Source: a virus (taxonomy: Duplodnaviria > Heunggongvirae > Uroviricota > Caudoviricetes). Taken from it: 22,482 nucleotides of DNA. The stretch is taken from IMG/VR virus record IMGVR_UViG_2531839146_000018. The stretch is one strand, 5' to 3'. Below, piece after piece: positions 2,729-21,952 of the stretch. A program made the translations under genes and the position numbers. Position 1 is the stretch's first letter; every line of letters begins with the position of its first letter. The notes under the pieces were generated by a model. That model searched no databases, had not been told where the DNA came from, and saw only the letters and a list, made by a program, of their open reading frames with translations.

Positions 2729-2735
2729 ATTGCGT

Positions 2736-5555: not shown

Positions 5556-5649
5556 AACAACTGGACAAGTGTACAGAGGTTTACTAAAGTATAGGGGAGT
5601 AGATTGATAAAAACTCACAGAGGATTGCTATTTAACAGTTAGCCCTGGA

Positions 5650-5900: not shown

Positions 5901-5982
5901 TATTCGACATTTGACGCAAATAAAACTCTCGCCATTCGTTGCAGGAGGGGGTTATTGCGTCATTAGTACAGGATATTAATAA

Positions 5983-6186: not shown

Positions 6187-6617
6187 TGGAAAAGAAAAAC
6201 CGCCCATTACAGGCGGCTAATTCAGATATTCGCGTATCTGATATTACGCCCCTTACAAAATCCCTTCAAGCACCAAAGCGCACACCGAAAAAGCATCGTG
6301 CCCGAGTCTATATGCTGCGTACTGGTATAGAGGGATGGACAGAAAACGACATTCTTCGCTACTGCCGTCTGTCTTCTGGTCGTAACTATGCAACAGAGTT
6401 AGAACGCCAGCTTGGAATCACTCTGGAGCGTATCGACGAAAAGAATCCTGATGGTATCGGAACACACCTTCGCTACCGTTTCTCCTGCCGTGGTGATGTT
6501 CTGAAAGTGATCACTCATATTAACCATCTTGCGAACATAAATGATCACAACGGACTTTCTCAGCAGGAAATTGCCGACATTCTGAAACTCTACCCGGACG
6601 CGTTTAACGCCGCTTAA
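6186..6617 (+). CDS. Hypothetical protein (143 aa), basic N-terminus; conserved-island protein of unknown function
   Basis: Start overlaps the alpA stop (TGATG), GAGGTGG Shine-Dalgarno; no domain recognised. Confidence 0.7.
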   Translation: MEKKNRPLQAANSDIRVSDITPLTKSLQAPKRTPKKHRARVYMLRTGIEGWTENDILRYCRLSSGRNYATELERQLGITLERIDEKNPDGIGTHLRYRFSCRGDVLKVITHINHLANINDHNGLSQQEIADILKLYPDAFNAA

Positions 6618-6629
6618 CGGAGACTGAAA

Positions 6630-7463
6630 ATGAACATCGAAAAAAGCAGATTAATTTCTGAGGCCGCCCCTCATCTGAACGCCTCTCTGAGCACAATTAA
6701 CGGTAATGAATTTGCCGCAATTGTCCCGGTTATTCCTGGTCATATCGGTGGGCGTGAAACCAATATTGTTAGCGCAAAAGCGTTACACAAAGCGTTGGGC
6801 GTGGGAAAAGACTTCTCTACATGGATCACTGATCGCATCTCTGAATATGACTTCACCATTGGGCACGATTACTCAGTCCATAAAACTATTTCCCCAAATT
6901 TGGGGAAAAGCCCGAATGGCGCGGCTTACAGCAAGATTAAGCAGTCTGGCAGACCCGGCAAAGACTATCTGTTAAGTGTCGGAATGGCGAAAGAACTGGC
7001 AATGATCGAACGCAATGATCAGGGTCGCGCTATCCGCCGTTATTTCATCCAGTGCGAGGAAGAATTACAGCGTAGCGTTCCTGAAATCGCCGCCCGCTAT
7101 CGTCGCCAGCTAAAAGCCCGTATCAGTGCCGCAAACAACTTTAAGCCAATGTGCGATGCGCTGAATATGGCCCGTGCCGAGCAGGGGAAAACGACGCAGC
7201 AACACCACTACACAAACGAGAGCAATATGATTTCTCGTATCGTTCTTGGTGGGCTAACTGCTAAGCAGTGGGCGCGGATAAATGGCTATTCTGGCGAACC
7301 TCGCGACCATATGAACGCAGAACAGCTTGAGCACCTCTCATATCTCGAAAGCACCAATATCACGTTAATTGATATGGGCATGGAATATGAGCAGCGCAAA
7401 GGAGAACTCACCCGCCTGTCGCAACGCTGGCTCGCTAAGCGTCTGGAGGCGGTCCATGTTTAA
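6630..7463 (+). CDS. Phage antirepressor-like protein (Bro-N / KilA-C type domains)
   Basis: Composition and motifs (N-terminal AntA/Bro-like region, C-terminal ...RAIRRYFIQCEEELQR... KilA-C-like region) recalled as antirepressor family; ACGGAG Shine-Dalgarno. Confidence 0.75.
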   Translation: MNIEKSRLISEAAPHLNASLSTINGNEFAAIVPVIPGHIGGRETNIVSAKALHKALGVGKDFSTWITDRISEYDFTIGHDYSVHKTISPNLGKSPNGAAYSKIKQSGRPGKDYLLSVGMAKELAMIERNDQGRAIRRYFIQCEEELQRSVPEIAARYRRQLKARISAANNFKPMCDALNMARAEQGKTTQQHHYTNESNMISRIVLGGLTAKQWARINGYSGEPRDHMNAEQLEHLSYLESTNITLIDMGMEYEQRKGELTRLSQRWLAKRLEAVHV

Positions 7464-7638
7464 GCCGACAGGAACATCACAACCTCAAAAACGCTACAAA
7501 GATGCCCACGGAGCACTCGTTACTGTCGAAAGCGTGTCTCACAACCAAGTGACGTTTTATCGCGACGGGTATCAATCGCCATGCGTACAACCGCTGGCAC
7601 GTTTCATGAAGGAGTTCGCGGAGGTTAACAAATGCTAA
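7456..7638 (+). CDS. Small hypothetical protein (60 aa; MFKPTGTSQPQKRYKDAHGALVTVESV...), possibly DUF4222-like
   Basis: ATG overlapping the end of the previous gene; family assignment is from memory and uncertain. Confidence 0.55.
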   Translation: MFKPTGTSQPQKRYKDAHGALVTVESVSHNQVTFYRDGYQSPCVQPLARFMKEFAEVNKC

Positions 7639-8480
7639 CCGCCCAGAAGAAGATATTTTCACTGGCTGGCATGTCGCCAAAATCCAGTAATATGACGGCA
7701 AAATCAGGCATTAATACAGCAGATACAAGCAAAGTTTATCATTTGCTGGTGGTAGGAGCGGATGCCTTAACTATGTCAGAAATCACGGTCGATGGTGTTA
7801 GCGTTGAGAAGGTCAGCAGCTGCGCCAGAGAATTTCTGGTCGTAGATGGCTTTCTCTGCTCGCGTAGTGACTCCACAAAAACCTTCGTCCACACGCGCGA
7901 CGTTAACGAAATGAGCGCGATGTATTGTACATCTGGTGCTTCCAATAGTGAGTTTTCGGAGTCCATAAAAAAGAGCTTGCCGTTATGCGGCAACACGGTT
8001 TATGGTTATAAGGCACCTCATAAAACGGGTGCCGGGTTTCGCAGCCCGGAAATGTACGAGGCGACACATGACGCGCCGAGCGTCTTTTTTTGTGCCGTTA
8101 GCCAGACTCACACTTTTTTCAGTGATGCGGTTATAATCCGCGTCGCTTGCAAAATTATGGTGGGCTGGACAGGGCAGCCGAAAGGCTGGCCGGTTTCCTT
8201 GTACGCCGGTACTGCGAACTCTGTTCAGTCCACCACCAGCGAGTTTCGCAGCTCCGGTGGTGGGAAGAATTCCCAGTACAAGGAGGCTGCCACATGCTGG
8301 CTACTACCCCTACCCAAAAACCGCAATTTATCTGGATTATCGCCGCAGTTCGCCGCGATTGCCCGACAATTACCGCCAAAATTCATCATATTGCTGCCGA
8401 GTCTGAACGCGATGCTCGCCGTTCTCTGGTGCGCGATCACGTCTGCTTTTTTGCTGGTCGTATCCGCATGGAGGTGGCAC
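7632..8480 (+). CDS. Uncertain ORF (first part of a 355-codon open frame); Ser/Cys/Trp-rich translation looks poorly protein-like
   Basis: ATG overlaps the previous stop and follows GAGG, but the frame runs into the well-supported gene at 8481 and overlaps 8294-8488 in another frame. Confidence 0.25.
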
Positions 8481-8488
8481 ATGATTAA
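8294..8488 (+). CDS. Small hypothetical protein (64 aa; [24 protein letters not shown]...)
   Basis: Strong AAGGAGG Shine-Dalgarno 8 nt upstream of the ATG. Confidence 0.5.
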   Translation: MLATTPTQKPQFIWIIAAVRRDCPTITAKIHHIAAESERDARRSLVRDHVCFFAGRIRMEVAHD

Positions 8489-8699
8489 AACCTACGATGT
8501 GCATATGGATCCCCTCGAACGCACAAGCCAGATCATCACACTGACAGAAGTGATTAATGACATTCTGGTGAGCAACTCTCCCTCACGAGACGAAAAACTG
8601 AAGGCGTTACTCGCGATATTGGATCTCGCCGTTCGTGACGTTCATTTCCTGCTGGAAGGTGGCGAAATGCCAGGAAAAACGGGGGCAACCAATGAATAA
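8481..8699 (+). CDS. Small hypothetical protein (72 aa; MIKTYDVHMDPLERTSQIITLTEV...)
   Basis: GGAGGTG Shine-Dalgarno 5 nt upstream of the ATG; stop overlaps the next start (ATGAATAA). Confidence 0.6.
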   Translation: MIKTYDVHMDPLERTSQIITLTEVINDILVSNSPSRDEKLKALLAILDLAVRDVHFLLEGGEMPGKTGATNE

Positions 8700-8886
8700 C
8701 TCAATTAATGCCCCTCGACTTACGTCCGCACTTCAATTAATCGAGCAAGCAGCGGCTGTCCTGGTTGCTGTCAGTCTTTCGGCTGAAGAAATGGACGCTG
8801 CTGATGTCGTGGATGCGATTAAAGCGTGCTCATCTTTGGTTAACGATGCTCGTGCAGAGCTGGTAATTCTTGGGGGTGAAAAATGA
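8692..8886 (+). CDS. Small hypothetical protein (64 aa; MNNSINAPRLTSALQLIEQAAAVLVAV...)
   Basis: Translationally coupled to neighbours through overlapping stop/start. Confidence 0.55.
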   Translation: MNNSINAPRLTSALQLIEQAAAVLVAVSLSAEEMDAADVVDAIKACSSLVNDARAELVILGGEK

Positions 8887-9146
8887 ATATCAACTTAATT
8901 TATCGTCATCCGTGTGAGCTGGAAATTGAATCATTGCTGAGCCGTGAAGAGCCATATCCAGACACATTCACTCTTGCAGATCGCACGACTGAACGGCTTA
9001 CCAGAGCGCGCACAGGTCTGGTTCATGTGATGAATGAGATTCTTCCATCGGTGGGAGGGGAACAGGCGACAGTAATCACTAGCTGGCTACAAAAAGTTAC
9101 CTCTCTGATAGATATCAGTTTAATCGATGCGGAGAGTGCGAAATGA
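8883..9146 (+). CDS. Small hypothetical protein (87 aa)
   Basis: ORF with overlapping start/stop coupling on both sides. Confidence 0.6.
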   Translation: MNINLIYRHPCELEIESLLSREEPYPDTFTLADRTTERLTRARTGLVHVMNEILPSVGGEQATVITSWLQKVTSLIDISLIDAESAK

Positions 9147-9364
9147 CCAACATCCAGCTCATTGAAGCACAATGTCGCATCGAACAGGTTCAGACTGTTT
9201 TAGGGTTCTGGCTTGAAGGGGCCAGCCCCAGCAACAGAGACAAGTTAATGATTGGCGCGGTTATGTCACTGCTCAATGGCGTACCAGAAGCTATTCAGGA
9301 AGCAGACGAATTGTTGGGCAAATATGAGTTACAGAATCATTCAGGCGAGGCGAAACATGAATAA
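9143..9364 (+). CDS. Small hypothetical protein (73 aa)
   Basis: ORF with overlapping start/stop coupling on both sides. Confidence 0.6.
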   Translation: MTNIQLIEAQCRIEQVQTVLGFWLEGASPSNRDKLMIGAVMSLLNGVPEAIQEADELLGKYELQNHSGEAKHE

Positions 9365-9959
9365 TTTCTTAACTTTCCATGCAGAAGCAACGCCTGACGG
9401 CGTAAACATCATGTACCGCAGCAACGATGGAATGACAGAACGCGTTGAGGCCGTCTCATATATTGATGCCGTAAATCGTCTGGATGCCGGGGATTATGAC
9501 GATAAACCAGATGAAGGTATGTCAATACATCTCGCTATAGCCGATGGCGGCAACCAGGGATATTTCGATTACACATCACAGCATAACGTCATTATGTGGA
9601 GATGGCTGATCGCAACAGTATTCATGCTGGAAATGAGAGAGGAAAACGGCACTGTCAGCATCATTGATGATACTGGCAATCCTTCCGAAGTGGCTGTTTA
9701 TTCCAACGGCATCGTCGCCATGCCGCTGTATCCAGTAGCAGAGCGCCTCGCTATGGCAAACAACATTGAGGGCGCGATGATAGAACGTTTTGGCATCGAG
9801 TCTGGCACAGAACGCGCCATCATTTTCTACAGAGCCATGATGGATGTGGAACAAGGAGCACTGACTCCATTTGGTCGTGAAACGCTTGCTGAACTTCACA
9901 ACAGCTTTATAGCTGAACTGAATGAAAACGGCATGCCAGCGGAACCAGTGACGCACTGA
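9357..9959 (+). CDS. Hypothetical protein (200 aa from the ATG at 9357; MNNFLTFHAEATPDGVNIMYRSNDG...)
   Basis: ATG overlaps the previous stop; the ORF track's upstream extension (9252) is probably not translated. Confidence 0.65.
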   Translation: MNNFLTFHAEATPDGVNIMYRSNDGMTERVEAVSYIDAVNRLDAGDYDDKPDEGMSIHLAIADGGNQGYFDYTSQHNVIMWRWLIATVFMLEMREENGTVSIIDDTGNPSEVAVYSNGIVAMPLYPVAERLAMANNIEGAMIERFGIESGTERAIIFYRAMMDVEQGALTPFGRETLAELHNSFIAELNENGMPAEPVTH

Positions 9960-9969
9960 GGATGGAACC

Positions 9970-10311
9970 ATGATTACTAAAAATTTCCGACTGAATGCGC
10001 TGGCAAATAAGTATGCGTCGGCACTGTATAAGCACATTACCTCCACCAGCGGCGGGGACTATTTCATGGTTGATGCGGACGGCGAGGCCGTCCGTGTGGA
10101 AATCGTCAATGGAGTAAAAGGCGTTCGCAGCCTGATCGATAGCTACACACTAGCAGCCATGAAAGTGTTCTACCCGCAGTGGGAAACCGTGGGGATCGAG
10201 CTTCTTGATCGTTGCGTCACTAAGGACGGATTGACTGACGTCGGGCGTGAGATATGGCAAAGCATGGTTAATGACATGGGCGCAACTGTAGCGGGAGGTT
10301 CTCATGCGTGA
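9970..10311 (+). CDS. Hypothetical protein (113 aa)
   Basis: ORF in the same-strand coupled block upstream of the primase. Confidence 0.65.
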   Translation: MITKNFRLNALANKYASALYKHITSTSGGDYFMVDADGEAVRVEIVNGVKGVRSLIDSYTLAAMKVFYPQWETVGIELLDRCVTKDGLTDVGREIWQSMVNDMGATVAGGSHA

Positions 10312-10675
10312 AAATGCAGAAATGGCGCTTAGCTCCGCAATCGGAGAGCAGGTGGCAAAGATTGCTGGTGCTGTGTGGATTCATAACCTTCATTCTACTG
10401 GTGAAGAGAAAATGGCAATTCAGACGCCAGAGGGACGCACCATTACTACATCTCTGAAGCCGTCAGATGTTTGTGATCTGATTTGCGCATTCATGTACCC
10501 AGCAATGAGGACTGCCCACGGCGATAAGTGGAAACTTGCGACAACCGCTGAATTTGATATGTGGCTAAACAATGATGGCATGCTGACTGATTACGGAATA
10601 ACCAAGTGGCAGATGCTGGTTAGCCATATCGCAAACGCTATAGACCACGTGGGGTACGGTGATGCGAAACATTGA
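10304..10675 (+). CDS. Hypothetical protein (123 aa)
   Basis: ORF overlapping both neighbours; immediately precedes the primase. Confidence 0.65.
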   Translation: MRENAEMALSSAIGEQVAKIAGAVWIHNLHSTGEEKMAIQTPEGRTITTSLKPSDVCDLICAFMYPAMRTAHGDKWKLATTAEFDMWLNNDGMLTDYGITKWQMLVSHIANAIDHVGYGDAKH

Positions 10676-13418
10676 TCTTATCCGTCAGGTTATCAGTGCG
10701 TCTGAAAACAACTGGCCTCATGTGCTGGGCTGCCTGAACATAAATGTCCCTGACTCTCCGCGCCGTCATGCTCCCTGCCCTGCATGTGGGGGCAAAGATC
10801 GATTCCGGTTCGATGACAACGGGCGCGGTAGCTTCATCTGTAATCAGTGCGGCGCTGGTGATGGGCTGGATTTAATTAAACGCGTAAATAACTGCGACAC
10901 AACAGAGGCGGCGCTTCTTGCCGCTGATGTTCTGGGTATTGATTACCGGACAACGGAAACACCAGAAGCCACCAGCCAGAAACGGGAACAACTGGAAACC
11001 GAGCGCCAGCGACGCGAACAGGAGCGCCTGAAAAGGGCAGAGAAGGACGAACAACAAAGACGGGATACGTTTTCCCGTCAGTTTGATGACATGCGCAGAA
11101 AGGCTGTAAACGGCAAATCTGATTATCTGGTTGCGAAAGGGGTAGGTGATTTTACATTCCCCGTGTTGCCCGATGGATCTCTGTTGCTGGCGCTGGTGGA
11201 TAAATCCGGCGCAGTCACAGCAGCACAGACAATTACCTCACATGGTGAAAAAAGACTCCTGACAGGTTCAGCAAAGCGGGGGGCATATCACGCCATAAAC
11301 GCACCAGAAACAACACAGAGCATCTTAATCGCAGAAGGGCTGGCAACGGCATTATCTGCCCATTTAATTCGTCCAGAGGCGCTGACAGTGGCGGCGATTG
11401 ATGCCGGGAACCTGTTATATGTCGCCCAGGTACTGCGGGATAAATTTCCTTCAGCACAAATCATCATTGCTGCGGATAACGACCACAGCGAAGGAAGACA
11501 AAACACGGGGAGAATAGCAGCAGAAAAAGCAGCTTTATCTGTTTCTGGATGGGTGGCATTACCCCCGACAGATCACAAAGCAGACTGGAATGATTACCAC
11601 CAAAAACACGGCATTAAATGCGCCACAGAAGCGTTCAATAAATCAATGTACCAACCACAGGGTAATGGCGTGAAACAGGAGCCACAGACCATTGAAGGAA
11701 GCGATTTTAAGGTTATGGATACCGACCCACTGAAACCAAGAATAGAAAGCCGCGAGGATGGTATTTATTGGGTATCTCCGAGAGCTGACAGCCAGAGTGG
11801 AGAAATCATCAATAACGAAAGCTGGTTATGTTCTCCGTTAAGCGTTATCGGTACTGGCAGAGACGATAAAGACCAGTATCTCATTCTGCGCTGGCTGTCG
11901 TTTGGTTCTGAAACGCCGACAACCGCTGCCATTCCACTGGCTGATATTGGTGAACGTGAAGGATGGCGCACACTTAAAGCTGGTGGGGTAAATGTCACGA
12001 CCAAAAGCAGCCTCAGAGCAATACTGGCAGACTGGCTACAACGCAGTGGCTCTCGTGAATTGTGGCGTGTTGCTCATGCCACTGGCTGGCAATGCGGAGC
12101 GTACATCATGCCTGATGGGGAAATCATCGGAACACCTGAAAATCCTGTGCTGTTCAGCGGGAGAAGCTCAGCCGCAGCCGGATATACCGTCTCAGGGAGC
12201 GCGAAAAGCTGGCGTGATAACGTGGCGCGTCTGGCCTTTGGTAACTATTCAATGATGACCGGGATCGGCGCAGCACTGGCAGCGCCATTGATTGGGCTGG
12301 TGGGCGCTGACGGGTTCGGCATTCATTTCTATGAGCAGTCGAGCGCAGGTAAGACCACCACGGCAAACGTGGCGAGCAGCTTATACGGCAACCCTGATTT
12401 ACTGCGGCTGACGTGGTACGGAACCGCGCTGGGGCTGGCAAATGAGGCCGCCGCCCACAATGATGGATTAATGCCGCTTGATGAAGTTGGTCAGGGCGCT
12501 GATCCTGTCAGCGTTTCACAGTCTGCCTATGCGTTATTTAACGGTGTAGGGAAACTGCAAGGCGCTAAAGACGGTGGAAACCGGGATCTAAAACGCTGGC
12601 GTACAGTGGCAATCAGCACCGGAGAAATGGATTTAGAAACATTTATCGCTACTTCCGGGCGAAAAACTAAAGCCGGGCAACTGGTGCGACTGCTGAATAT
12701 TCCGTTGAGTAAAGCAGTACGCTTTCACGATTATCAGAACGGAAAACAGCACGCAGACGCACTGAAAGACGCTTACCAGCATCACCATGGCGCAGCCGGG
12801 CGTGAGTGGATTAAATGGCTGGCAGACCACCAGCAACAGGCAATTAAAACTGTTCGTGACTGCGAAAGCAGATGGAGAAGTCTGATCCCATCCGATTATG
12901 GTGAGCAGGTTCACCGTGTAGCCGCGCGATTTGCCATTCTGGAGGGCGCATTGCTGTTAGGCGAGGTTGTAACAGGCTGGGATGCTCAGATATGCCGTGA
13001 TGCGATACAGCACAGCTATAACGCATGGTTGCGCGAGTTCGGCACAGGTAACAAAGAACATCAGCAGATTATTGAACAAACGGAGGCATTTCTTAATGCC
13101 TATGGGCTTAGCCGTTTTGCACCATTTCCATACAGCCCGGCAGATTTGCCCATCAAAGATTTAGCCGGATACCGTCAGCGTGGAGAACATGACGAAAGCC
13201 CAATGATTTTCTACACATTCCCGGCCACATTTGAAAAGGAGATCGCATGTGGTTTCAACGCAAAACAGTTTGCTGAAGTGTTGAAAAAAGCCGGGATGCT
13301 AACCCCACCAAACAGCGGTCGTGGATACCAAAGAAAATCACCACGTATTCAGGGACGACAAATAAACGTTTATGTACTCAATTACCAGCCGGGAGATTAT
13401 AACTCATCTGAAGAATGA
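10662..13418 (+). CDS. Satellite/PICI-type replication protein: primase-helicase with N-terminal zinc finger, Toprim and C-terminal P-loop NTPase (DUF927-like) regions
   Basis: CPACGG...CNQCGAGDG zinc-binding motif, Toprim-like acidic motif IIIAADNDHSEGRQNTG, Walker A-like FYEQSSAGKTTT; family identification recalled, not searched. Confidence 0.9.
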   Translation: MRNIDLIRQVISASENNWPHVLGCLNINVPDSPRRHAPCPACGGKDRFRFDDNGRGSFICNQCGAGDGLDLIKRVNNCDTTEAALLAADVLGIDYRTTETPEATSQKREQLETERQRREQERLKRAEKDEQQRRDTFSRQFDDMRRKAVNGKSDYLVAKGVGDFTFPVLPDGSLLLALVDKSGAVTAAQTITSHGEKRLLTGSAKRGAYHAINAPETTQSILIAEGLATALSAHLIRPEALTVAAIDAGNLLYVAQVLRDKFPSAQIIIAADNDHSEGRQNTGRIAAEKAALSVSGWVALPPTDHKADWNDYHQKHGIKCATEAFNKSMYQPQGNGVKQEPQTIEGSDFKVMDTDPLKPRIESREDGIYWVSPRADSQSGEIINNESWLCSPLSVIGTGRDDKDQYLILRWLSFGSETPTTAAIPLADIGEREGWRTLKAGGVNVTTKSSLRAILADWLQRSGSRELWRVAHATGWQCGAYIMPDGEIIGTPENPVLFSGRSSAAAGYTVSGSAKSWRDNVARLAFGNYSMMTGIGAALAAPLIGLVGADGFGIHFYEQSSAGKTTTANVASSLYGNPDLLRLTWYGTALGLANEAAAHNDGLMPLDEVGQGADPVSVSQSAYALFNGVGKLQGAKDGGNRDLKRWRTVAISTGEMDLETFIATSGRKTKAGQLVRLLNIPLSKAVRFHDYQNGKQHADALKDAYQHHHGAAGREWIKWLADHQQQAIKTVRDCESRWRSLIPSDYGEQVHRVAARFAILEGALLLGEVVTGWDAQICRDAIQHSYNAWLREFGTGNKEHQQIIEQTEAFLNAYGLSRFAPFPYSPADLPIKDLAGYRQRGEHDESPMIFYTFPATFEKEIACGFNAKQFAEVLKKAGMLTPPNSGRGYQRKSPRIQGRQINVYVLNYQPGDYNSSEE

Positions 13419-13440
13419 GCTTCTTCATGTGCGTAGAAAA

Positions 13441-13555
13441 GGTGTTGGTTCAGTTGGTTCAGTTGGTTCAATTTGTAAAGAGTATTGTTTTATAAGGATT
13501 TTATTCTTTTTATTGAACCAACACTGAACCAACAATACGGTATTTTGAACCAACA
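13441..13555. repeat. Iteron-type replication origin candidate: three direct GTTGGTTCA repeats (13444-13470), AT-rich spacer, three inverted TGAACCAACA repeats (13514-13555)
   Basis: Repeats read directly; location immediately downstream of the primase gene matches ori placement in P4/PICI-type elements. Confidence 0.7.
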
Positions 13556-13662
13556 CAATGTGACTGAATTGATGCGCACAACACCTGGCTGGCATCAGAG
13601 AGTGTTTTACGAGACTTTCGTAAAATCCTGTGTACAAGGGCGTGACGTTTTTGAAAGTGAGC

Positions 13663-13681
13663 ACTACGAAATTTTCGTAGT
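13663..13681. promoter_or_regulatory. Perfect palindrome ACTACGAAA-T-TTTCGTAGT; the same half-site motif (CGAAAATTTCGTAGG) recurs twice at 21539-21575
   Basis: 9 bp inverted arms read directly; shared motif at the right end suggests a common DNA-binding protein site. Confidence 0.4.
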
Positions 13682-13874
13682 TCAGAAAACAGGCCCTGAG
13701 AAGTTGTTATGCCTGTTCAGCAAACCATCCGCATAGCTGATCGCGAATCAAATTACCAATGGAGCCAGAAGTAAGGGCAGAACTGAAAAGCGCCTGCCGT
13801 GAAGAGTAATGCGACACCATAAATATAGTTTTTAGAGTCCATAAAAAACCTGTCAAAACCTGACACACAGAACG

Positions 13875-13908
13875 ATGCCACCAGCTACTGAACGGTGGCA
13901 TTTTTTTG
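13875..13908 (+). terminator. Rho-independent terminator candidate (8 bp stem ATGCCACC/GGTGGCAT, 11 nt loop, followed by TTTTTTT)
   Basis: Hairpin plus a 7-T run read directly. Confidence 0.6.
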
Positions 13909-14002
13909 TGCTATTTGTTTCATATTTTGCAATTACGATGATGAATATTGCGATTTGTGAAACTATAATAACTGTTGTTTTATACAGTTCTAAGGGGGCG
14001 TT

Positions 14003-14164
14003 ATGGCTGTTTCAGTAAAGCCGGTATTGATAAGTGAGAAGCAAATGGAAGCGATAAAGAAAATTCAGGAAGAGCAGCGTAAAAAATCAGGAATTGGAGT
14101 AGCGCCAACTCTGCATGAAATTGCACGAGGGTTAATAGATAAGGCGCTGGCAGGCTGTATGTGA
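14003..14164 (+). CDS. Small protein (53 aa; MAVSVKPVLISEKQMEAIKKIQEEQRKKSGIGVAPTLHEIARGLIDKALAGCM), possibly a ribbon-helix-helix type DNA-binding regulator
   Basis: Strong AAGGGGG Shine-Dalgarno 3-4 nt before the ATG; beta-strand then two-helix pattern typical of Arc/CopG-like proteins; not in the ORF track (under 60 aa). Confidence 0.5.
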   Translation: MAVSVKPVLISEKQMEAIKKIQEEQRKKSGIGVAPTLHEIARGLIDKALAGCM

Positions 14165-14180
14165 AAATGGATGGCATCGC

Positions 14181-14642
14181 ATGGAACTAAAATTTATTGA
14201 TAACCCTGTGCGATTACAGGCCTTTCTTAACGAGCCTGGCAATACCGAAAATATTGTTGAGCCGGGGCACACGTACTACATCAAGCCTGATGCGGTATAT
14301 CTCGGCATCTACGAAGGATTAGTGCTGGCCGGCGTTCATGAAGTGCGTAACTTCTGGCATAGCGTTGTTGAATGCCATGCGGTGTACGACCCCGGATTCC
14401 GTGGTGAATATGCACTGCAAGGTCATCGATTATTCTGCAAATGGCTTCTCGAAAACTCACCATTCCTTAACAGCGTCACCATGGTTCCTGACACAACGAA
14501 ATACGGACGGTCAATTATCCGTTTGCTTGGCGCTACCCGTGTTGGTCACCTGGCCGATGCATATATCAGATGTGGTAAGCCAGTCGGCGTAACGCTTTAT
14601 CAGTTAACGCGGCAACAATATAAGGAACTCAGCGAATGTTAA
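14181..14642 (+). CDS. Hypothetical protein (153 aa), first gene of the four-gene cargo operon; unknown function
   Basis: ORF tightly followed by three overlapping downstream genes; no domain recognised. Confidence 0.7.
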   Translation: MELKFIDNPVRLQAFLNEPGNTENIVEPGHTYYIKPDAVYLGIYEGLVLAGVHEVRNFWHSVVECHAVYDPGFRGEYALQGHRLFCKWLLENSPFLNSVTMVPDTTKYGRSIIRLLGATRVGHLADAYIRCGKPVGVTLYQLTRQQYKELSEC

Positions 14643-15313
14643 TTACCCATATAGCTCATAAACATCTCAATCGTGCCGTATACGAAAAAGGCGGTGATGG
14701 TGGTGCCTCTAAAGCCCAGGCGAAGGCCCAGCAGCAGGCAATTGATTTGCAGCGCGAGCAGTGGAATACGGTGATGAATAATCTCAAGCCGTATGCAGAA
14801 GTCGGATTGCCTGCTTTACAACAACTACAAGGACTGATGACTCTGGAAGGGCAGAATAAAGCCGCGAATGATTTCTTTGGTTCTGGTTTATATAAAACAC
14901 AGGCAGATCAGGCCCGTTATCAGAACCTTGTCTCAGCAGAAGCTACCGGGGGGCTTGGCTCAACAGCTACCAGTAACCAGTTATCTTCCATTGCGCCCAT
15001 GCTTTATAACAATTGGCTCAGTGGGCAAATGCAAAATTATGGAAACCTGCTAAATGTCGGGATGAATGCGGCATCAGGGCAGGCAACAGCAGGGCAAAAC
15101 TACGCCAATAATACCGGACAACTCTTGCAGGGGCTTGGCGCTATTCGTGCAGGTCAGGCGCAGCAGCCATCCAGTCTTGCGCGTGGTATTGGTGGGGCGG
15201 CATCAGGCGCTTTAGCGGGTGCGCAACTTGGTTCCGTTGTTCCGGGTATAGGTAATGTCGCCGGGGCTATTGGTGGTGGGCTTATTGGTCTTGTTGGGGG
15301 GCTTGGATTCTAA
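14636..15313 (+). CDS. Low-complexity Q/A/G-rich protein (225 aa) with glycine-zipper-like hydrophobic C-terminus; candidate ejection/injection (P22 gp7-like) protein
   Basis: Start overlaps the upstream stop; composition and C-terminal GGLIGLVGGLGF segment; the P22-like assignment rests on size, order and composition only. Confidence 0.75.
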   Translation: MLITHIAHKHLNRAVYEKGGDGGASKAQAKAQQQAIDLQREQWNTVMNNLKPYAEVGLPALQQLQGLMTLEGQNKAANDFFGSGLYKTQADQARYQNLVSAEATGGLGSTATSNQLSSIAPMLYNNWLSGQMQNYGNLLNVGMNAASGQATAGQNYANNTGQLLQGLGAIRAGQAQQPSSLARGIGGAASGALAGAQLGSVVPGIGNVAGAIGGGLIGLVGGLGF

Positions 15314-16734
15314 TGGCGACATGGCAACTTGGCGGGCTGCCTGGCATGGCACCGCAAAATGATAATGCTCCTCGTTCTTCCGTTCCTCAGCCTGTGCAGT
15401 ATCAGCAGCAGCCAAACGTAGGTTTAATGGCGCTACAGGGGCTAAGAGGCGTTGCTGAGATTAATCAGCAGGCACGTCAACAACAGCGTAAAGCAGAGTT
15501 TCAGAAAGCATATGCCGGGGCTTTTGAGTCTGGAGACAGAAACAAAATGCGCAGTCTTATTTCTGAGTATCCAGAAGAATTTGAAAGCGTTCAGAAAGGG
15601 ATGGGCTTTATTGATGACGACCAGAGAAATTCTATTGGTCATCTTGCGACTAGTGCTCAAATCGCATCTTCGCTCGGAACTGGGGCATTTGGAAAATTCA
15701 TAGCAGATAACGAAGATGAAATGCGTCGCTTGGGAATTTCTCCTGAGTCTGTTGCCGAAATGCATGTTAATGATCCACAGGAATTCCAGCGGCTTGCTGG
15801 TAGTATGGCACTGTTTTCTCTCGGTCATGAGAAGTACTTCGATATCAAAGATCGAATGGAAGGTCGGGATATTGAGCGTGGCAAGTTGGCAGAGACAATC
15901 CGCAGCAATCAGGCTGGAGAGGCGCTTCAGGCGAGAGGGCAGGATATTAGCCGAGCAAATGCGTTAACGTCAGCATATGCACCAACAGCCGCAATGCAGA
16001 ATTACAATCAGTACGCGCAAATGTTAAAGGCGGATCCAGAGGGGGCAGCGGCATTTGCGGCAGCGGCTGGAATTAATACAAACGCCAAAAAATTAATGAG
16101 TGTTAGGGAAAACGATGATGGCACTGTCACAAAATACTACACAGACGGAAGTGAAGAGCAGGGAAAACTAAACCAGCCAATATCTGGAGATGGGTTTCGT
16201 CCAATAGCTTTGCCAACAGCTCAAAAGATCATGGAAAAGTCGCCAGAAGGGGCTAAAAAAGTTGCTGGATTTGCATACAGAGTTAGGGATGCTCTTGATT
16301 CAATGGATACACTGAAAGGCCAGCTTAGCCCACAGCGAGTGGCGATCATTAATAATGCTTTGGGTAATGGGACGCTGGCTAACTTAACGCTCAGCCCAAC
16401 AGAGCAGCAATACGTTGTTAATGCTAATGACGCAATAATGGCAATACTCCGTCAGGAAACAGGGGCAGCAATCGTACCTGCTGAAATGTCAAAATATTAT
16501 CAAATGTATTTCCCTCAGCCTGGCGACTCCACAAAAACCATTGATACCAAGCGCCGGAAGATGGAAAACCAGTTCAATTCGCTGAAAGCTGCTTCTGGTC
16601 GAGCTTATGATGCTTTGCGTGTTATTTCAGCAGTTGACAGAGGAACTTCTTCTTCGTCGCAGACATTGCCGCAATCTGAGCAGGTATCACAGCCAGCAGC
16701 CAGCAGTAATTTTTCTTCACTATGGGGTGATTAA
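15313..16734 (+). CDS. Low-complexity Q/A/S-rich protein (473 aa); candidate ejection/injection (P22 gp20-like) protein
   Basis: TAATG start/stop overlap with neighbours; size close to 471 aa recalled for P22 gp20; no sequence-level confirmation. Confidence 0.8.
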   Translation: MATWQLGGLPGMAPQNDNAPRSSVPQPVQYQQQPNVGLMALQGLRGVAEINQQARQQQRKAEFQKAYAGAFESGDRNKMRSLISEYPEEFESVQKGMGFIDDDQRNSIGHLATSAQIASSLGTGAFGKFIADNEDEMRRLGISPESVAEMHVNDPQEFQRLAGSMALFSLGHEKYFDIKDRMEGRDIERGKLAETIRSNQAGEALQARGQDISRANALTSAYAPTAAMQNYNQYAQMLKADPEGAAAFAAAAGINTNAKKLMSVRENDDGTVTKYYTDGSEEQGKLNQPISGDGFRPIALPTAQKIMEKSPEGAKKVAGFAYRVRDALDSMDTLKGQLSPQRVAIINNALGNGTLANLTLSPTEQQYVVNANDAIMAILRQETGAAIVPAEMSKYYQMYFPQPGDSTKTIDTKRRKMENQFNSLKAASGRAYDALRVISAVDRGTSSSSQTLPQSEQVSQPAASSNFSSLWGD

Positions 16735-18839
16735 TGGCTAAAGCATGGAAAGATGTTATCGCCTCTCCACAGTATCAGGCGTTAGCACCAGAACAAAAAG
16801 TGCAGGCTCAGGAGCAATACTTCAATGAAGTCGTGGCCCCACAAGCCGGAGAAAGTGTAGAGCAGGCTAAGCAGGCTTTTTATGCTGCCTATCCACTACC
16901 ATCAACGAATGAAATAGACAGATCCCAATCAGCAACTCAAAATATTCAACATACATCATCTGATAATTCTCTTGCGTCAGGGTATGCAAAGTTAGCTACT
17001 CAGCAAAGAGAGGGGCTTGAGCGTTCAGCAGAACAGGGAGCCAGTCTTGGGGCTGCGATGCGCGATGCTATAACAGGCGAAAGCCGAATGACTCCAGAGA
17101 TGGAGAGACTGCAAAATGTCGCCTCTGCCCCAGAATTGAACTCACTAAGCATGGATGCCCTGAAGGCTGGATGGTCTCAACTTTTCGGCTCTGACGCGTC
17201 TCAGGAAAAGATTCTTCAGGGAATGGGGGCGACATTAAGGCAGGATGAGAAGGGGAATACTATCGTTTCTCTTCCATCAGGTGATTATGCCCTGAACAAG
17301 CCGGGTTTATCACCGCAAGACCTGACTTCGTTTCTTGCTAATGCGTTGGCGTTTACACCAGCGGGCAGGGCTGGAACGGTGCTTGGTGCCATAGGAAAAT
17401 CAGCAGCTACAGATTTAGCACTACAGGGAGCCACCAGCCTTGCTGGTGGAGAAGATATTGATCCGTTACAAACGGTAATTTCTGCTGGCATTGGTGGTAT
17501 TGGTAAGGGGCTGGAAAATACAGCGAGTGCGGTTTCGAGGGCTGTTCGTGGTGATATGTCTCCTGAAGCAAAGGCTGCTGTCGACTTTGCATCGGAAAGA
17601 AATCTGCCGTTAATGACCAGTGACATGCTGAAAGATAAAACCTTTATGCAGAGTCAGGCTCAGACATTAGGCGAAAGAGTTCCTTTTTTTGGAACCGGTA
17701 AGAATCGACTGAATCAACAACAAGCACGAGAAAATTTAGTCAGAACATTTAGCGATGGTCTGGGTAGCATTTCTGATAAACAGCTTTATGAATCTGCGAC
17801 TAAAGGGCAACAAAAATTCATTGAGGCAGCAGGAAAGCGATATAACCGCATAATTGACGCTATGGGGGATACCCCTGTCGATCTCTCAAACACGGTAAAA
17901 ACTATCGACAATCAGATTGCCGTGTTAAGCCGCCCTGGCAAATCTCAGGATAGAGCCGCGGTAAAAGTCTTGCAGCAATTTAAAGACGATATCACCAGCG
18001 GACCAAATGACCTGCGTCTGGCGAGGGAAAACAGAACCGATCTTCGAAAGCGATTTATAGCGTCATCTGACACTGTTGATAAAGATACGCTACAGAAAGC
18101 CAGCGATATTATCTACAAGGCATATACGGCGGATATGAAAAAAGCCGTAGCCAAAAATCTTGGAGCAGACGAAGCCATTAATATGGCAAGGGTTGATCGC
18201 TCATGGTCTAAATTCAATGACATGATGGGAAGAACACGCGTTCAAAAGGCAATAGCCAGCGGCAAGTCCACGCCTGAGGATGTAACAAAACTCGTTTTTA
18301 GCCAAAGCCCATCAGAACGTTCTCAGCTTTACAGGCTTCTGGATGACAATGGTAGGCAAAACGCACGAGCAGCCATAGTTCAGAATGCTGTAGATAAGGC
18401 GACTGATCCGTCTGGAAATATCAGTGTTGAGAAGTTTATTAATGCGTTACACCGGAACAGGAAGCAATCAGCAACTTTCTTTAAAGGCGTACATGGAAAG
18501 GAACTGGACGGCGTTATTAAATACCTCAACGATACAAGACACGCGGCAAAAGCGAACGTTCAAAACTTAAATGGTCAGCAACTTTATGGATTATTAGTTG
18601 GTGGTGGCATCATAAACGCAGCAGTATTGGCGGGGATGCTAAAAACGGCTGCGTTTGTTGTTCCTGCTGCTGGTGCCGTAGGCGGAGCAGCGAAGGCATA
18701 CGAAAGCCCTGTTATACGAAATGCCTTGTTACGTCTGGCAAATACGCCAAAAGGTAGCACAGCATATGACAGAGCGATCAGTACGGTCACACAATCGCTC
18801 ACCAGAGTCGCACAGGCATCACAAAAAGAAGCTCAATAA
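16734..18839 (+). CDS. Large low-complexity protein (701 aa) with C-terminal hydrophobic segments; candidate ejection/injection (P22 gp16-like) protein
   Basis: TAATG overlap with the upstream gene, GGGGTGA Shine-Dalgarno; C-terminal membrane-like region LYGLLVGGGIINAAVLAGML... Confidence 0.8.
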   Translation: MAKAWKDVIASPQYQALAPEQKVQAQEQYFNEVVAPQAGESVEQAKQAFYAAYPLPSTNEIDRSQSATQNIQHTSSDNSLASGYAKLATQQREGLERSAEQGASLGAAMRDAITGESRMTPEMERLQNVASAPELNSLSMDALKAGWSQLFGSDASQEKILQGMGATLRQDEKGNTIVSLPSGDYALNKPGLSPQDLTSFLANALAFTPAGRAGTVLGAIGKSAATDLALQGATSLAGGEDIDPLQTVISAGIGGIGKGLENTASAVSRAVRGDMSPEAKAAVDFASERNLPLMTSDMLKDKTFMQSQAQTLGERVPFFGTGKNRLNQQQARENLVRTFSDGLGSISDKQLYESATKGQQKFIEAAGKRYNRIIDAMGDTPVDLSNTVKTIDNQIAVLSRPGKSQDRAAVKVLQQFKDDITSGPNDLRLARENRTDLRKRFIASSDTVDKDTLQKASDIIYKAYTADMKKAVAKNLGADEAINMARVDRSWSKFNDMMGRTRVQKAIASGKSTPEDVTKLVFSQSPSERSQLYRLLDDNGRQNARAAIVQNAVDKATDPSGNISVEKFINALHRNRKQSATFFKGVHGKELDGVIKYLNDTRHAAKANVQNLNGQQLYGLLVGGGIINAAVLAGMLKTAAFVVPAAGAVGGAAKAYESPVIRNALLRLANTPKGSTAYDRAISTVTQSLTRVAQASQKEAQ

Positions 18840-18842
18840 CTG

Positions 18843-18869
18843 GTTAGCCACGGATGGCTAATTTTTGTT
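18843..18869 (+). terminator. Rho-independent terminator candidate for the cargo operon (stem GTTAGCCA/TGGCTAA(T), loop CGGA, then TTTTTGTT)
   Basis: Hairpin and T-run read directly, 4 nt after the stop of the 701 aa gene. Confidence 0.65.
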
Positions 18870-19277
18870 CTTTGCTCTCATCCACAGGTAAAGAAGGGCA
18901 AGAACAAGACAAAAAACAGAGAATAGATAACCTACCTCATATGGTGCGCCAAAAAAATTAGCTATTGATACGGGCAAAAAAGCTGAAGCGATCAAAATTG
19001 AAAGGCAAAAAATAAGCCCAGTAATATAGTTTATTAAATTCTTAAATGAGAAATGTTTTGCTTGATTTACGGTCTTAGCGAATGATCGCTTAACGACGGA
19101 TAAAAGCAAATAGATGGCGACAGTTGCTAATGCCCCTTTCCACCAATCTGGATATAGTTTTGCGACAATCAGACCAAGGAAAACCATGATGACAGCCTGA
19201 GCATTCACACCAACCCTCCCTTTAGCGTTGTTTAGAATGGCAATCATCATATATCCAAGACATGGCATTTGGTACAT
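18858..19277 (-). CDS. Small integral membrane protein (139 aa, about 4 hydrophobic helices), AT-rich; moron-like, candidate superinfection-exclusion or abortive-infection factor
   Basis: Convergent with the cargo operon; strongly hydrophobic segments; markedly lower GC than neighbours. Confidence 0.6.
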   Translation of the reverse strand: MYQMPCLGYMMIAILNNAKGRVGVNAQAVIMVFLGLIVAKLYPDWWKGALATVAIYLLLSVVKRSFAKTVNQAKHFSFKNLINYITGLIFCLSILIASAFLPVSIANFFGAPYEVGYLFSVFCLVLALLYLWMRAKNKN

Positions 19278-19401
19278 AGCTTGGGTCGGGATTTCAAATC
19301 CGATCCCCGTTGATGGGGCCGTTACAGTACGCGCATATCCGCTTTATGTGAAACAGGAAGATTTTTCTGATATCACTGCCACAGCAAAACACCAATTTCG
19401 G

Positions 19402-19704
19402 GACAAGTACGCGCGCGAGGGGTATCAGTTGCAAAAAATTTTGCAACTACGTCCGACCAGTATGCACACGATGGCGGGGGGATACCATAAAACTGTTCTC
19501 TACATGAGACAGAGTGGTGGTGATGTGTTGATTATCGGCGTATATGCGCACAGGACGCGCTATGACGATGTTTTATGCGGGTACACCAATCCCATGTATC
19601 TGGTGTGATAAATCGCGTTACATGACCTCTCATGTTGTGCTGGTGGTTATCACGACGTTCTGAATCTGGCCTTTGCCTGGTATTTTGCGACAAGTACGCG
19701 CGCG
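19402..19704. repeat. Degenerate GC-rich region with a 16 bp direct repeat GACAAGTACGCGCGCG (19402-19417 and 19689-19704) and an operator-like inverted repeat GTTGCAAAA-AA-TTTTGCAAC (19428-19447)
   Basis: Repeats read directly; no convincing ORF on either strand. Confidence 0.4.
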
Positions 19705-20252
19705 TAGCATCGAAATAATCGGATGGCGTATGCTGCTGGTAATATGAAGACCGATAGCATTAACCGTAAGGAGAAAGACTTCTCGATAACGGCAAGATCG
19801 CGGCAAGGGGGCTGAATTGCGAGGCGAGATTAAGCAACTGTCTTGAACGTAAAAATCATGGAGCAACATGATGGTACGATTCATTCCATTCTTCGTTCTT
19901 TCTGAGCATTGCGTTCAGGCTTAGTCAAAATTAGTGTTGCGAGCGGACCTATTAGTAATTGTTAGTGCGATGCGCCTGTTATGGATTGTTATGGTTGTGG
20001 CAGGCCTGATTAATATCCAGTATGACCACCAGCTATGAGAGGCCACCTCAGTGGTTCGCAGTTGCAGGTTTGCACTCAGGTTCGCAGGGTTTTGGCTACT
20101 TTCACGTGCGAACCTGCAGAATTGCAAAGGACAACTAAGTCCTCTGGCCAACTCCCGGTTTATGAGCGACACAGTCCGCCTGGCGCATCGTTTTCGTCGA
20201 GTGCGCCCATCAGCTTGTCCATGGACTATCCACCACTCGATATTAAAGCTAA

Positions 20253-20438
20253 TCATTGGTTGCCAGCCCGCGAATCAAGTTTGTTCTGGATCCAAGCTTC
20301 AACCTCCTCAAGCGACCATCTAGCTGATCTACCAATTTTAACTGGCTGTGGAAACGTGCCCGTCTTAACCCATGAGTAGATTGCCGTTTTCTTGAAGCCC
20401 GTTCTGAGCATAACTTCGCTTAATTTGATAAGGCGCAT
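20253..20438 (-). CDS. Second AlpA-family regulator (61 aa), opposite orientation to the first
   Basis: MRLIKLSEVMLRTGFKKTAIYSWVKTGTFPQPVKIGRSARWSLEEVEAWI matches the AlpA signature. Confidence 0.75.
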   Translation of the reverse strand: MRLIKLSEVMLRTGFKKTAIYSWVKTGTFPQPVKIGRSARWSLEEVEAWIQNKLDSRAGNQ

Positions 20439-20486
20439 AGAGGCTCCTCTGCTTTAGATTAAGCATAGTGACAATCTGGCTTTGGC

Positions 20487-20521
20487 GGTATCCAAAAGCG
20501 AGGTATCCATGTTGGTATCCA
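20487..20521. repeat. Three direct GGTATCCA repeats spaced 12-15 bp, upstream of the minus-strand alpA-like gene; candidate binding sites
   Basis: Read directly at 20487-20494, 20502-20509 and 20514-20521. Confidence 0.35.
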
Positions 20522-20689
20522 CCAAAACGCTGTTTACCAAAAAAGTTACCACCGGAACAGGACATTTTGAGCTGTAACTTAACACATAGCATATGGAGTT
20601 CACGCATAGACTTCACGCACAACGGCTCCGGCCAGTGAAGAATCACCCTGGCTGGCAATATAATGCCGATCACCATCAGAGGGGGATCC

Positions 20690-20881
20690 ATGACACCACG
20701 AGAAATCGAGCTGCTGACCATTGCCAAGCTGGAGCATGACGGCCACCAGCTCAGCCCGGCAGAACTGCGGGAATTAAGGCGCCAGCTGGCAGAGGGCCCT
20801 GTAATAGCCAGGCGGTACCGCGAAATGATGACCAGCCCCGCATATCGCTGGAGCAAACCAGCGCCGCTCCGTGCGCGGTGA
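20690..20881 (+). CDS. Small hypothetical protein (63 aa; MTPREIELLTIAKLEHDGHQLSPAELRELRRQLAEGPV...)
   Basis: GGGGGA Shine-Dalgarno just upstream of the ATG at 20690; helical charged composition; function unknown. Confidence 0.45.
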   Translation: MTPREIELLTIAKLEHDGHQLSPAELRELRRQLAEGPVIARRYREMMTSPAYRWSKPAPLRAR

Positions 20882-20955
20882 GCAGCACCTAACCAGCACT
20901 AGACAAGCCCTGTGCTGGTGGATGTCCCTCATAATTAGCGGTTTTTAAACAGCGT

Positions 20956-21077
20956 GTTGGTTCACGGCCTCTTTTTGTTGGTTCAAAAATGGGGTGTGTT
21001 GGTTCACTTTTTGCGAATAATTCTTTTAAAAACAATACTCTTTACAAATTGAACCAACTGAACCAACTGAACCAACA
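20956..21077. repeat. Second iteron-type origin-like region, inverted relative to 13441-13555: three TGTTGGTTCA (20956-21007), AT-rich spacer, three TGAACCAAC (21051-21077)
   Basis: The reverse complement of 21020-21077 is nearly identical to 13437-13495 (about 58 bp); the remaining iterons have different spacing. Confidence 0.7.
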
Positions 21078-21112
21078 CCTTTTTGCTTATCTATATAGTC
21101 TGAGAGGCAGAA

Positions 21113-21400
21113 ATGATAAGGGACAGGAAAGCTGAAGATCTGGAGTCAAAAGGGCTATACCGGAGAGCTGCCGCACGATGGGCAGAAATCATGATGCTGG
21201 CAGATGGCGATAAAGAACGTGAACATGCAGCAAACAGACGCTCTGAATGTATCCGTAAGGCGGCACGCCAACCAGCAACTACAGACAGATTCGGAGATTT
21301 AAGACAGGCAGTTAAGCGAACTCATTCGGCTCTTGGTATGGATGAGGAAGCGAGAGGGTACTTCAGGCGTTATCGCGATAAAGATTGCCAGAGACAGTAA
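21113..21400 (+). CDS. Small basic protein (95 aa), possibly a PerC-family transcriptional regulator
   Basis: GAGAGG Shine-Dalgarno; N-terminus MIRDRKAEDLESKGLYRRAAARWAEIM resembles the PerC/Pch family as recalled; uncertain. Confidence 0.55.
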   Translation: MIRDRKAEDLESKGLYRRAAARWAEIMMLADGDKEREHAANRRSECIRKAARQPATTDRFGDLRQAVKRTHSALGMDEEARGYFRRYRDKDCQRQ

Positions 21401-21847: not shown

Positions 21848-21952
21848 TGGGGGTACTTTTGGGGGTATCTTCAAAGATGTAATTGGAAAATATCTTTATA
21901 TATCAATGTATTTTTATTGTTTGTTTTGTTCCTATTATCGCACCATTTAAAT
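21848..21952. repeat. Right-end copies of repeat Y (21848-21868) and repeat X (21925-21952); candidate attR or integrase-binding region marking the right boundary of the island
   Basis: Y matches 4289-4309 at 20 of 21 positions; X matches 4153-4181 at about 24 of 29; the X/Y order is reversed relative to the left junction. Confidence 0.45.

Follow-up and report, generated by a model that had tools for sequence, protein, structure and literature searches.

Why should a mobile element carry, on either side of several kilobases of other genes, two regions that each look like a replication origin? The question is raised by IMG/VR virus record IMGVR_UViG_2531839146_000018 (Duplodnaviria; Heunggongvirae; Uroviricota; Caudoviricetes), a stretch of 22,482 nucleotides that is here called the window. 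Within it, the attachment (att) direct repeats TCCTATTATCG(G)CACCATT at 4157-4178 and 21929-21947 delimit a 17.8-kb phage-satellite island of E. coli. Immediately behind the island's gene for a fused primase-Rep initiator lies a cluster of short repeats (iterons), and a mirror-image cluster lies 7.4 kb further on. Our analysis makes it probable that both regions belong to a single satellite replication origin, as a pair of units that accessory DNA has separated.

Geometry of the two iteron units

The iteron GTTGGTTCA has 12 exact matches in all 22,482 bases, and a pattern search finds every one of them in two clusters, 13444-13554 (unit 1) and 20956-21076 (unit 2). The matches start at 13444, 13453 and 13462 (plus strand) and 13514, 13525 and 13546 (minus strand) in unit 1, and at 20956, 20977 and 20998 (plus strand) and 21050, 21059 and 21068 (minus strand) in unit 2. 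When up to one mismatch is allowed, the window holds 18 matches, whereas 100 shuffles averaged 5.4 and reached 14 at most; a sister island has 12 exact matches where 0.22 are expected. The parts of the two units and their immediate surroundings are as follows.

13444-13470, plus strand: tandem block of unit 1, three copies of GTTGGTTCA with a 9-bp period (sequence read, pattern search)
13471-13513, no strand: spacer of unit 1, 43 bp, 84% A+T, starting with ATTTGTAAAG (measured)
13514-13554, minus strand: phased block of unit 1, three inverted iterons (sequence read, pattern search)
13582-13594, plus strand: CACCTGGCTGGCA motif, 3' of the unit 1 phased block (sequence read)
20956-21006, plus strand: phased block of unit 2, three iterons (sequence read, pattern search)
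21007-21049, no strand: spacer of unit 2, 43 bp, 79% A+T (measured)
21050-21076, minus strand: tandem block of unit 2, three inverted iterons with a 9-bp period (sequence read, pattern search)
21077-21098, plus strand: conserved outer flank ACCTTTTTGCTTATCTATATAG, after the second tandem block (sequence read in relatives)

Within a unit, the two triplets differ in kind. One forms a tandem array; the other is phased and inverted, its iterons starting 11 and 21 bp apart in unit 1 and 21 and 21 bp apart in unit 2. The units as a whole are mirror images, the tandem blocks pointing outward and the phased blocks facing the intervening 7.4 kb. Unit 1 begins 26 bp past the stop codon of the primase gene, and the gene for a PerC-family regulator lies 36 bp beyond unit 2.

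A repeat finder and alignment place two arms at 13437-13501 and 21019-21083, each of 65 nt, which are 94-95% complementary (blastn E value 3e-22) and contain about 55 nt of uninterrupted identity. Self-BLAST returns this pair as the sole significant internal repeat of the window. The sequence-only reading, which had noticed two similar regions of three iterons, an AT-rich spacer and three inverted iterons and had put the near identity of one with the reverse complement of the other at about 58 bp, is thus confirmed; with exact iterons in two clusters only, and with these clusters sharing the one internal repeat, the arrangement is not random. Past the 65-nt arm the iterons alone are conserved between the units and the intervening sequence differs, so the units are not simply a recent duplication. 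No DnaA boxes were found within or beside either unit (their count in the window is not above chance), and Rfam gives no known RNA at either one.

Two inverted units among relatives

Relatives were collected by a primase scan with one genome per species, which yielded 77 loci, mostly from Enterobacterales (designated by L numbers), and were grouped by k-mer counting. As a rule, the primase relatives, about 60 in number, have two inverted units. In a compact group of about 28 loci (e.g., L003, L007, L015, L023, L035, L045, and L053), the second one is no more than about 350 bp from the primase stop codon, and in a split group of 12 loci (the window, L001, L012, L018, L020, L026, L034, L037, L054, L059, L060, and L061) it lies 1.1 to 9 kb downstream. 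Islands for which both att ends are available have two units in seven of seven cases, whether compact (L007 and L065) or split (L012, L054, the window, L081, and L082), and small islands of 12 kb also have two units, side by side.

The iteron differs from GTTGGTTCA in at least eight lineages (GTTGTCTCA, GTCGGTTCA, ACGGGTTA, GTGGGTTA, GTCGGGTA, TGGGATAA, GTAGGGATA, and AACCGACC), and in every lineage with a changed iteron both units carry the same variant. The spacer measured 43 bp in 23 of 23 units of the AT-rich type, in a search that allowed 39 to 59 bp. Across elements, the unit 1 spacers are 79% alike and the unit 2 spacers 76%, compared with 69% between unit 1 and unit 2; the likeness within a unit being above that between units, the two are old paralogues and not fresh copies. 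Every relative read has kept the sequence that follows the second tandem block (ACCTTTTTGCTTATATATA and variants), regardless of which iteron it carries. There is evidence here that both units are likely to be under selection, and the comparison indicates that a compact pair of mirror-oriented units is probably the ancestral plan in the family, and that the layout of the window is this pair pulled apart by accessory genes rather than the scar of a rearrangement.

That unit 2 might be the leftover origin of a second, oppositely oriented satellite, or else a recent functionless duplication, is a thought encouraged by the near identity of the arms and by an AlpA-like minus-strand gene inside the cargo (20253-20438). 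However, tblastn finds a single primase in the window and no second one, there is one integrase within a single att pair, and both units lie inside the same island. Furthermore, the two-unit layout recurs in the islands of 12 kb and in eight or more iteron classes, the unit 2 spacers form a conserved lineage of their own across species, and homology links the tandem-block flank of unit 2 to the right edge of the compact origins. The nested-element reading, which had been proposed from the sequence as the scar of an opposite element, is contradicted by these comparative data, and we consider a leftover or functionless unit 2 extremely improbable.

Three side observations concern the same clusters. 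The CACCTGGCTGGCA motif occupies a central position, between the two units, in compact origins of several iteron classes. Yersinia pekkanenii L033 has three iteron clusters (8154-8413, 12736-12995, and 13917-14206) with 24 iterons, two of the three being upstream of or inside the primase-matched stretch, which suggests a duplication or insertion involving the origin. Finally, Oceanospirillum L068, the primase homologue of which is 29% identical, has two inverted AAGTGTGTA clusters (7656-7737 and 20006-20079) that lie 12 kb apart and flank the primase gene; these may be a distant parallel or unrelated.

The initiator and its link to the iterons

The protein expected to act on the units is encoded directly upstream of unit 1.

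10659-13418, plus strand: fused primase-Rep initiator, 919 amino acids (aa), Zn-ribbon, Toprim, and DUF927 helicase (Pfam)
13332-13349, plus strand: codons for residues 892-897 (R-K-S-P-R-I), putative iteron-specificity motif (column-level alignment test)

Residues 8-362 are 33% identical to the alpha protein of phage P4 (BLASTP E value 2e-41), whereas the helicase and C-terminal parts do not align with P4 alpha; residues 403-814 match Protein Data Bank entry 8TCH, a solved staphylococcal "pathogenicity island protein" (E value 2e-11). Judged from these alignments, the initiator is a mosaic of a P4 alpha-like N-terminal part and a helicase part like the Rep of Staphylococcus aureus pathogenicity islands (SaPIs).

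Thirty full-length primases were aligned over 919 columns, and just five of these columns split the 16 loci with GTTGGTTCA from the 5 loci with GTTGTCTCA. Residues 892, 893, 894, and 897 make up four of the five. Residues 892-897 read RKS-PRI with GTTGGTTCA, GRV--RE with GTTGTCTCA, and RKT-PRI with GTCGGTTCA in L021. Thus, changes of iteron go together with changes in a putative six-residue basic motif of the primase tail, a pattern that a base-reading motif would be expected to leave, and from this co-variation of motif and iteron we infer that the primase binds the iterons. When primase identity was compared segment by segment with iteron class, a weak trend was seen (a ratio of 1.48 in the last 49 residues) that is confounded by phylogeny; the informative test was that of the single columns. 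A place in the C-terminal tail would be in keeping with base reading by P4 alpha. The location of the motif also fits the SaPI Rep, in which a C-terminal winged-helix domain reads the iterons (PMC9371898).

Accessory DNA between the units

The following features lie between the units of the window or directly beyond the second one.

14003-18839, plus strand: cargo, a conserved 53-aa open reading frame (ORF) followed by P22-type gp14 (DUF2824), gp7, gp20, and gp16 ejection genes (Pfam, PHROGs, phage BLAST); the four homologues span 14181-18839
18858-20856, minus strand: variable accessory sub-region with unknown ORFs (ORF list, PHROGs)
20253-20438, minus strand: AlpA/excisionase-like ORF, 61 aa, within the accessory sub-region (annotation of ORFs)
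21113-21400, plus strand: PerC-family regulator (Pfam)

Cargo presence and absence is seen in a pair of close relatives. In Lonsdalea britannica L012 and L045, identity is 93-97% across the primase and unit 1 and 89-97% from the second tandem block to the right. What differs is exactly the interval from the unit 1 phased block to the unit 2 tandem block, which measures 5.86 kb in L012 and 118 bp in L045. Exchange is seen in the islands of E. coli A34 and SCU-115 (L081 and L082), which have an identical geometry of 6 + 6 iterons and an inter-unit gap of 8.3 kb: the ejection genes are kept, while AbiD and a conserved 147-aa minus-strand gene replace the minus-strand ORFs of the window. Presence and absence in Lonsdalea together with the swap in E. 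coli therefore mark the inter-unit space as a site of gain, loss, and exchange of accessory DNA. No cargo-less E. coli variant was found with a joined probe (0 of 1533 with the primase end and the perC flank within about 1.2 kb), and the evidence on presence and absence thus comes from Lonsdalea and not from E. coli.

An inverted pair could instead be a substrate for recombination, either as a switch that inverts the 7.4-kb cargo or, as in the yeast 2-micron plasmid, to flip a fork for double rolling-circle amplification. Such recombination would be favored by arms that are 94-95% identical, and also by the variable hexamer after ATTTGTAAA, which differs little or not at all between the two units of one element (the window, L059, L060, and L061). 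The half of the spacer beside the tandem block is, moreover, identical in both units of the window, with a similar local likeness in L059, L060, and L061, which suggests occasional gene conversion between the units. Other evidence speaks against inversion. Of 528 E. coli genomes that match a chimeric probe for the junction it would create (window 13002-13501 fused to the reverse complement of 20519-21018), none covers at least 80% of the probe, and the cargo genes keep one orientation relative to the primase in every relative. The ORFs scanned with Pfam and PHROGs contain no dedicated invertase domain of the resolvase type, and in most relatives the units are adjacent, with nothing between them to invert. 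We therefore regard either form of recombination as very unlikely. An earlier suggestion that the pair serves for inversion or deletion of the cargo fares accordingly: inversion finds no support in the 528 genomes, but loss or gain of the cargo is borne out by L045 and L012.

The pair does not, however, bracket the entire cargo as a rule of the family, as had been proposed from the window. PerC is outside the pair in the window and inside it in L012, L018, L020, L026, and L054, and in relatives with compact origins the same kinds of cargo lie after both units.

Several side observations concern the genes in this space. From gp16 to unit 2 extends a sub-hotspot of variable content (19644-20606 in L081, 19644-20621 in L082, and 18858-20856 in the window). 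Throughout the family, a virion protein for DNA delivery comes after the conserved 53-aa ORF, and its type varies: P22-type gp14/gp7/gp20/gp16 in E. coli, tape-measure proteins of the TMP_2, TMP_3, and TMP_4 families, an SLT-transglycosylase of 584-600 aa, or a P2 gpV-like spike with a baseplate hub. Phages like P22 are candidate helpers of the island in the window. The regions holding the ORF and the delivery proteins (Pfam, PHROGs) are as follows.

Window: 14003-18839
L054: 16228-18912
L018: 14632-18042
L021: 15686-18826
L059: 16258-18012
L034: 13918-16125

The literature searched describes no satellites that encode their own helper-matched ejection or tape-measure proteins, and no split origins in phage-inducible chromosomal islands (PICIs).

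A possible control role for the second unit

The main rival to an origin of two units, although we think it unlikely, is that unit 2 is a primase-binding control site and not an origin. It could titrate or handcuff the initiator and so limit copy number, or it could be an operator for the adjoining genes, which would couple primase occupancy to PerC on the right or, in relatives, to a regulator-like gene on the left. The latter encodes a conserved minus-strand protein of 130-147 aa (MSKSLSVTFR...) that stands next to unit 2 in most split origins and is absent from the window; it is ribbon-helix-helix-like by eye and has no Pfam match. The gene sits behind repeated GTAAGACA or TGTATAAC motifs, and in compact-origin islands it is kilobases away from the origin. 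Comparison of relatives places it as follows.

L018: 21104-21499, minus strand
L059: 19215-19604, minus strand
L081: 20662-21051, minus strand
L060: 12861-13250, minus strand

In L018, L020, L026, L059, L060, L081, and L082, this gene has its start behind motifs of the GTAAGACA type and about 80-240 bp away from unit 2 (in L018 and L059, about 90 bp), as an operator would have it. Conservation of the outer flank after the second tandem block (TTTTTGCTTATATATA) across iteron classes, with the first rightward gene directly after it, points the same way, as does the spacer of the second unit in many compact origins, which is GC-rich and not AT-rich. On the other hand, a consensus scan of 20300-21250 and 13300-14250 found no sigma-70-like promoter. 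Unit 2 of the window also retains the geometry of an origin in full, with a 43-bp AT-rich spacer and the ATTTGTAAAG motif, for which a mere titration array would have no need. Lastly, the MSKSLSVTFR... gene of compact relatives keeps its upstream region without iterons, and the adjacency of unit 2 and this gene is therefore not obligatory. As a promoter in its own right, the outer flank of unit 2 is unsupported, having no sigma-70-like site in the consensus scan.

Iteron control loci of plasmids, such as incA/incC of P1 and incB/incC of F, with their handcuffing, offer a possible analogy, in that a second cluster of the same initiator-binding repeats stands away from the first and could pair with it. 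These loci are not known to have an origin-like AT-rich center, whereas unit 2 of the window copies the whole geometry of an origin.

A probable two-unit origin split by cargo

For the reading that we prefer, an origin of two units, the following course of events may be proposed. The fused primase-Rep would read the iterons through the short basic motif in its C-terminal tail, assemble on both iteron blocks of a unit, open the 43-bp spacer, and load itself as the replicative helicase. The ground plan of the family would be two inverted units directly after the primase gene with the tandem blocks outward; in the lineage of the window, P22-type ejection genes and a variable sub-region are present between them. 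The units would then work 7.4 kb apart, or 10.3 kb apart the other way round the excised circle, and may be two separate sites of initiation or may loop together in the manner of the ori and crr of P4. The inter-unit space is, in addition, a site of cargo gain and loss.

Several points weigh against this reading. The argument that unit 2 fires, or is needed, comes from comparison between relatives, and in the published pri-ori test, which concerned another PICI, the compact region was taken as a whole, undissected (PMC6092414). Sixteen loci have only unit 1 in the 10 kb downstream that were examined, their right ends lying beyond that stretch, and given these loci unit 2 may be dispensable. 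Many compact origins (L003, L007, and L045) have a GC-rich, hairpin-like second spacer, so that unit may bind the primase without melting. Every split example uses one iteron, GTTGGTTCA. With respect to PerC and the virion-protein module, unit 2 does not keep one position, and "bracketing" is thus without constant gene content.

A stronger version of the two-unit origin, which we put forward only tentatively, is that the origin is a true dyad of entry sites for self-loading helicases that tolerates separation by kilobases, the gap being a dedicated slot for cargo exchange. If so, the genes between the units, including the helper-matched delivery proteins, would be replicated first and amplified most upon induction, and the conserved units would be homology anchors for cargo swaps between satellites that share a primase specificity.

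Origins of PICIs and SaPIs have been described as one module of iterons, an AT-rich center, and iterons. Here, two such modules stand in mirror orientation in a large enterobacterial family, and they appear to co-evolve even at separations of up to 9 kb. The family offers a natural series for the study of bidirectional replication by self-loading Rep helicases, with units that are adjacent or 1, 2, 5, 7, and 9 kb apart and with second spacers that are AT- or GC-rich. In practical terms, it provides a candidate six-residue specificity motif that could be swapped, and a second unit that can be used in genome annotation as a sequence signature delimiting the accessory region; inverted origin copies in these islands should not be taken for assembly errors or nested elements.

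The island carrying the units

The remaining features of the island, apart from the initiator, the units, and the genes listed above, are as follows.

4157-4178, plus strand: attL, core TCCTATTATCGGCACCATT (repeat search; the core lies beside an annotated tRNA-Thr in sister islands L081 and L082)
4341-5555, plus strand: tyrosine integrase with arm-binding domain (Pfam)
5983-6186, plus strand: AlpA-family regulator (Pfam)
8013-8240, plus strand: isrK and C4/P4-CI-type antisense immunity RNA (Rfam gathering-score matches, 69 and 81 bits)
21929-21947, plus strand: attR, TCCTATTATCGCACCATT (att search)

The attL core TCCTATTATCGGCACCATT is presumably the 3' end of a tRNA-Thr gene; ARAGORN predicts no tRNA gene in the window. 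An identical att core is given for PICI CnCIND14b (Table S1 in PMC6092414). The island holds the integrase, AlpA, the P4-type immunity RNA, the fused primase-Rep helicase, and PerC, and AntA and Ash proteins are also assigned in the island by Pfam. The isrK and C4/P4-CI-type RNA (8013-8240) is found inside a region called as an Ash-family ORF. Its presence means that a P4-type immunity stands on a PICI-like backbone, and the island is a hybrid of a Gram-negative PICI and a P4-like satellite. The backbone ORFs between 4341 and 18839 all run on the plus strand, and only the accessory block at 18858-20856 is on the minus strand. E. coli 042 carries the same island between yicC and dinD, with 98.7% identity across the 7.9-kb region under study, and the whole 7.9 kb is present in 154 complete E. 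coli genomes.

To the left of attL (416-4070) there are a 497-aa ORF, a gene for a Dit-like tail protein, and a second, leftward integrase with DUF6538; these genes look like the end of a neighboring prophage. Exact Chi sites (GCTGGTGG) number 16, eight per strand, all of them inside the island (4566-20921), where shuffles lead one to expect 0.7. Their density is about 0.9 per kb both in the island and in the PICI EcCICFT073; the chromosomal flanks of L001 have about 0.13 per kb, and P4 has none. The density of Chi sites and the family-wide, helper-matched DNA-delivery proteins are perhaps worth more attention than the origin itself.

Comparison with known systems

Phage P4 is the system that the window first recalls. 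Its primase domain is homologous (33%), the primase gene is followed at once by an iteron module, a further cluster of iterons is found at a distance of kilobases (4.7 kb in P4 and 7.4 kb in the window), P4-type immunity RNA is found in the island, and no DnaA box is near the units of the window. The island thus has both the alpha-type primase domain and the C4/CI immunity RNA of P4-like satellites; among 20 island ORFs scanned with Pfam, for which no dedicated satellite hidden Markov models were used, none matches the Psu, Sid, or Delta families, which in P4-like satellites serve capsid-size control and transactivation. According to its GenBank record, P4 has crr, composed of two direct 120-bp repeats, directly after alpha, and ori at 9086-9809, upstream of the alpha operon. 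A crr repeat resembles a unit of the window in having two tandem iterons, a spacer of about 35 bp, and then inverted iterons. However, the crr repeats are direct while the units of the window are inverted, and the P4 ori is upstream of the alpha operon while both units of the window are downstream of the primase, with no iterons upstream. P4 is also without Chi sites, of which the island has 16. The bipartite origin that the sequence-only reading had likened to ori and crr therefore stands in substance, with the lineage's own iteron in both units, a geometry fixed across Enterobacterales, and joint change of the two, but not in the exact layout of P4.

The PICI EcCICFT073 provides the only experimentally tested origin of a Gram-negative PICI, its origin region together with pri supporting plasmid replication (PMC6092414). 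A compact stretch of some 230 bp behind its primase gene (L080, 7010-7240) carries tandem iterons, an AT-rich stretch, mixed iterons, a spacer, and opposite tandem iterons, a succession like that of our units. EcCICFT073 differs in having another primase (584 aa), the iteron TCTACC, adjacent units, and a GC-rich second spacer.

More generally, Gram-negative PICIs are recognized by an integrase at the left end with att sites, by AlpA and a rightward backbone, and by pri-rep followed by the origin (PMC6092414), all of which the island has. PerC is likewise a known accessory gene of PICIs (PMC6092414). The definition also calls for a size of about 10-15 kb without structural or lytic genes, and so excludes phage virion genes, whereas the island measures 17.8 kb and carries the P22-type ejection proteins gp14, gp7, gp20, and gp16.

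The closest counterpart of the units themselves is the SaPI/PICI origin of Ubeda and co-workers, Fillol-Salom et al. (2018), and Qiao et al. (2022). It is found immediately 3' of rep and contains 6-12 iterons, half on each side of an AT-rich center and in opposite directions (PMC9371898, PMC6092414). SaPI Reps are self-loading helicases, for which at least two oppositely pointing iterons are present on each side of that center (PMC9371898). Both units of the window have 3 + 3 iterons around 43 bp of 79-84% A+T, and by the SaPI/PICI definition each unit alone would be a complete origin. The likeness extends to the position 3' of pri-rep, the opposed iterons, the Rep-type helicase, the int-alpA-...-pri backbone, and PerC as cargo. 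Where one unit has been described for SaPIs and PICIs, the window has two complete, inverted units that are 7.4 kb apart with cargo between them, and this split layout is a variant of the known SaPI/PICI type of origin.

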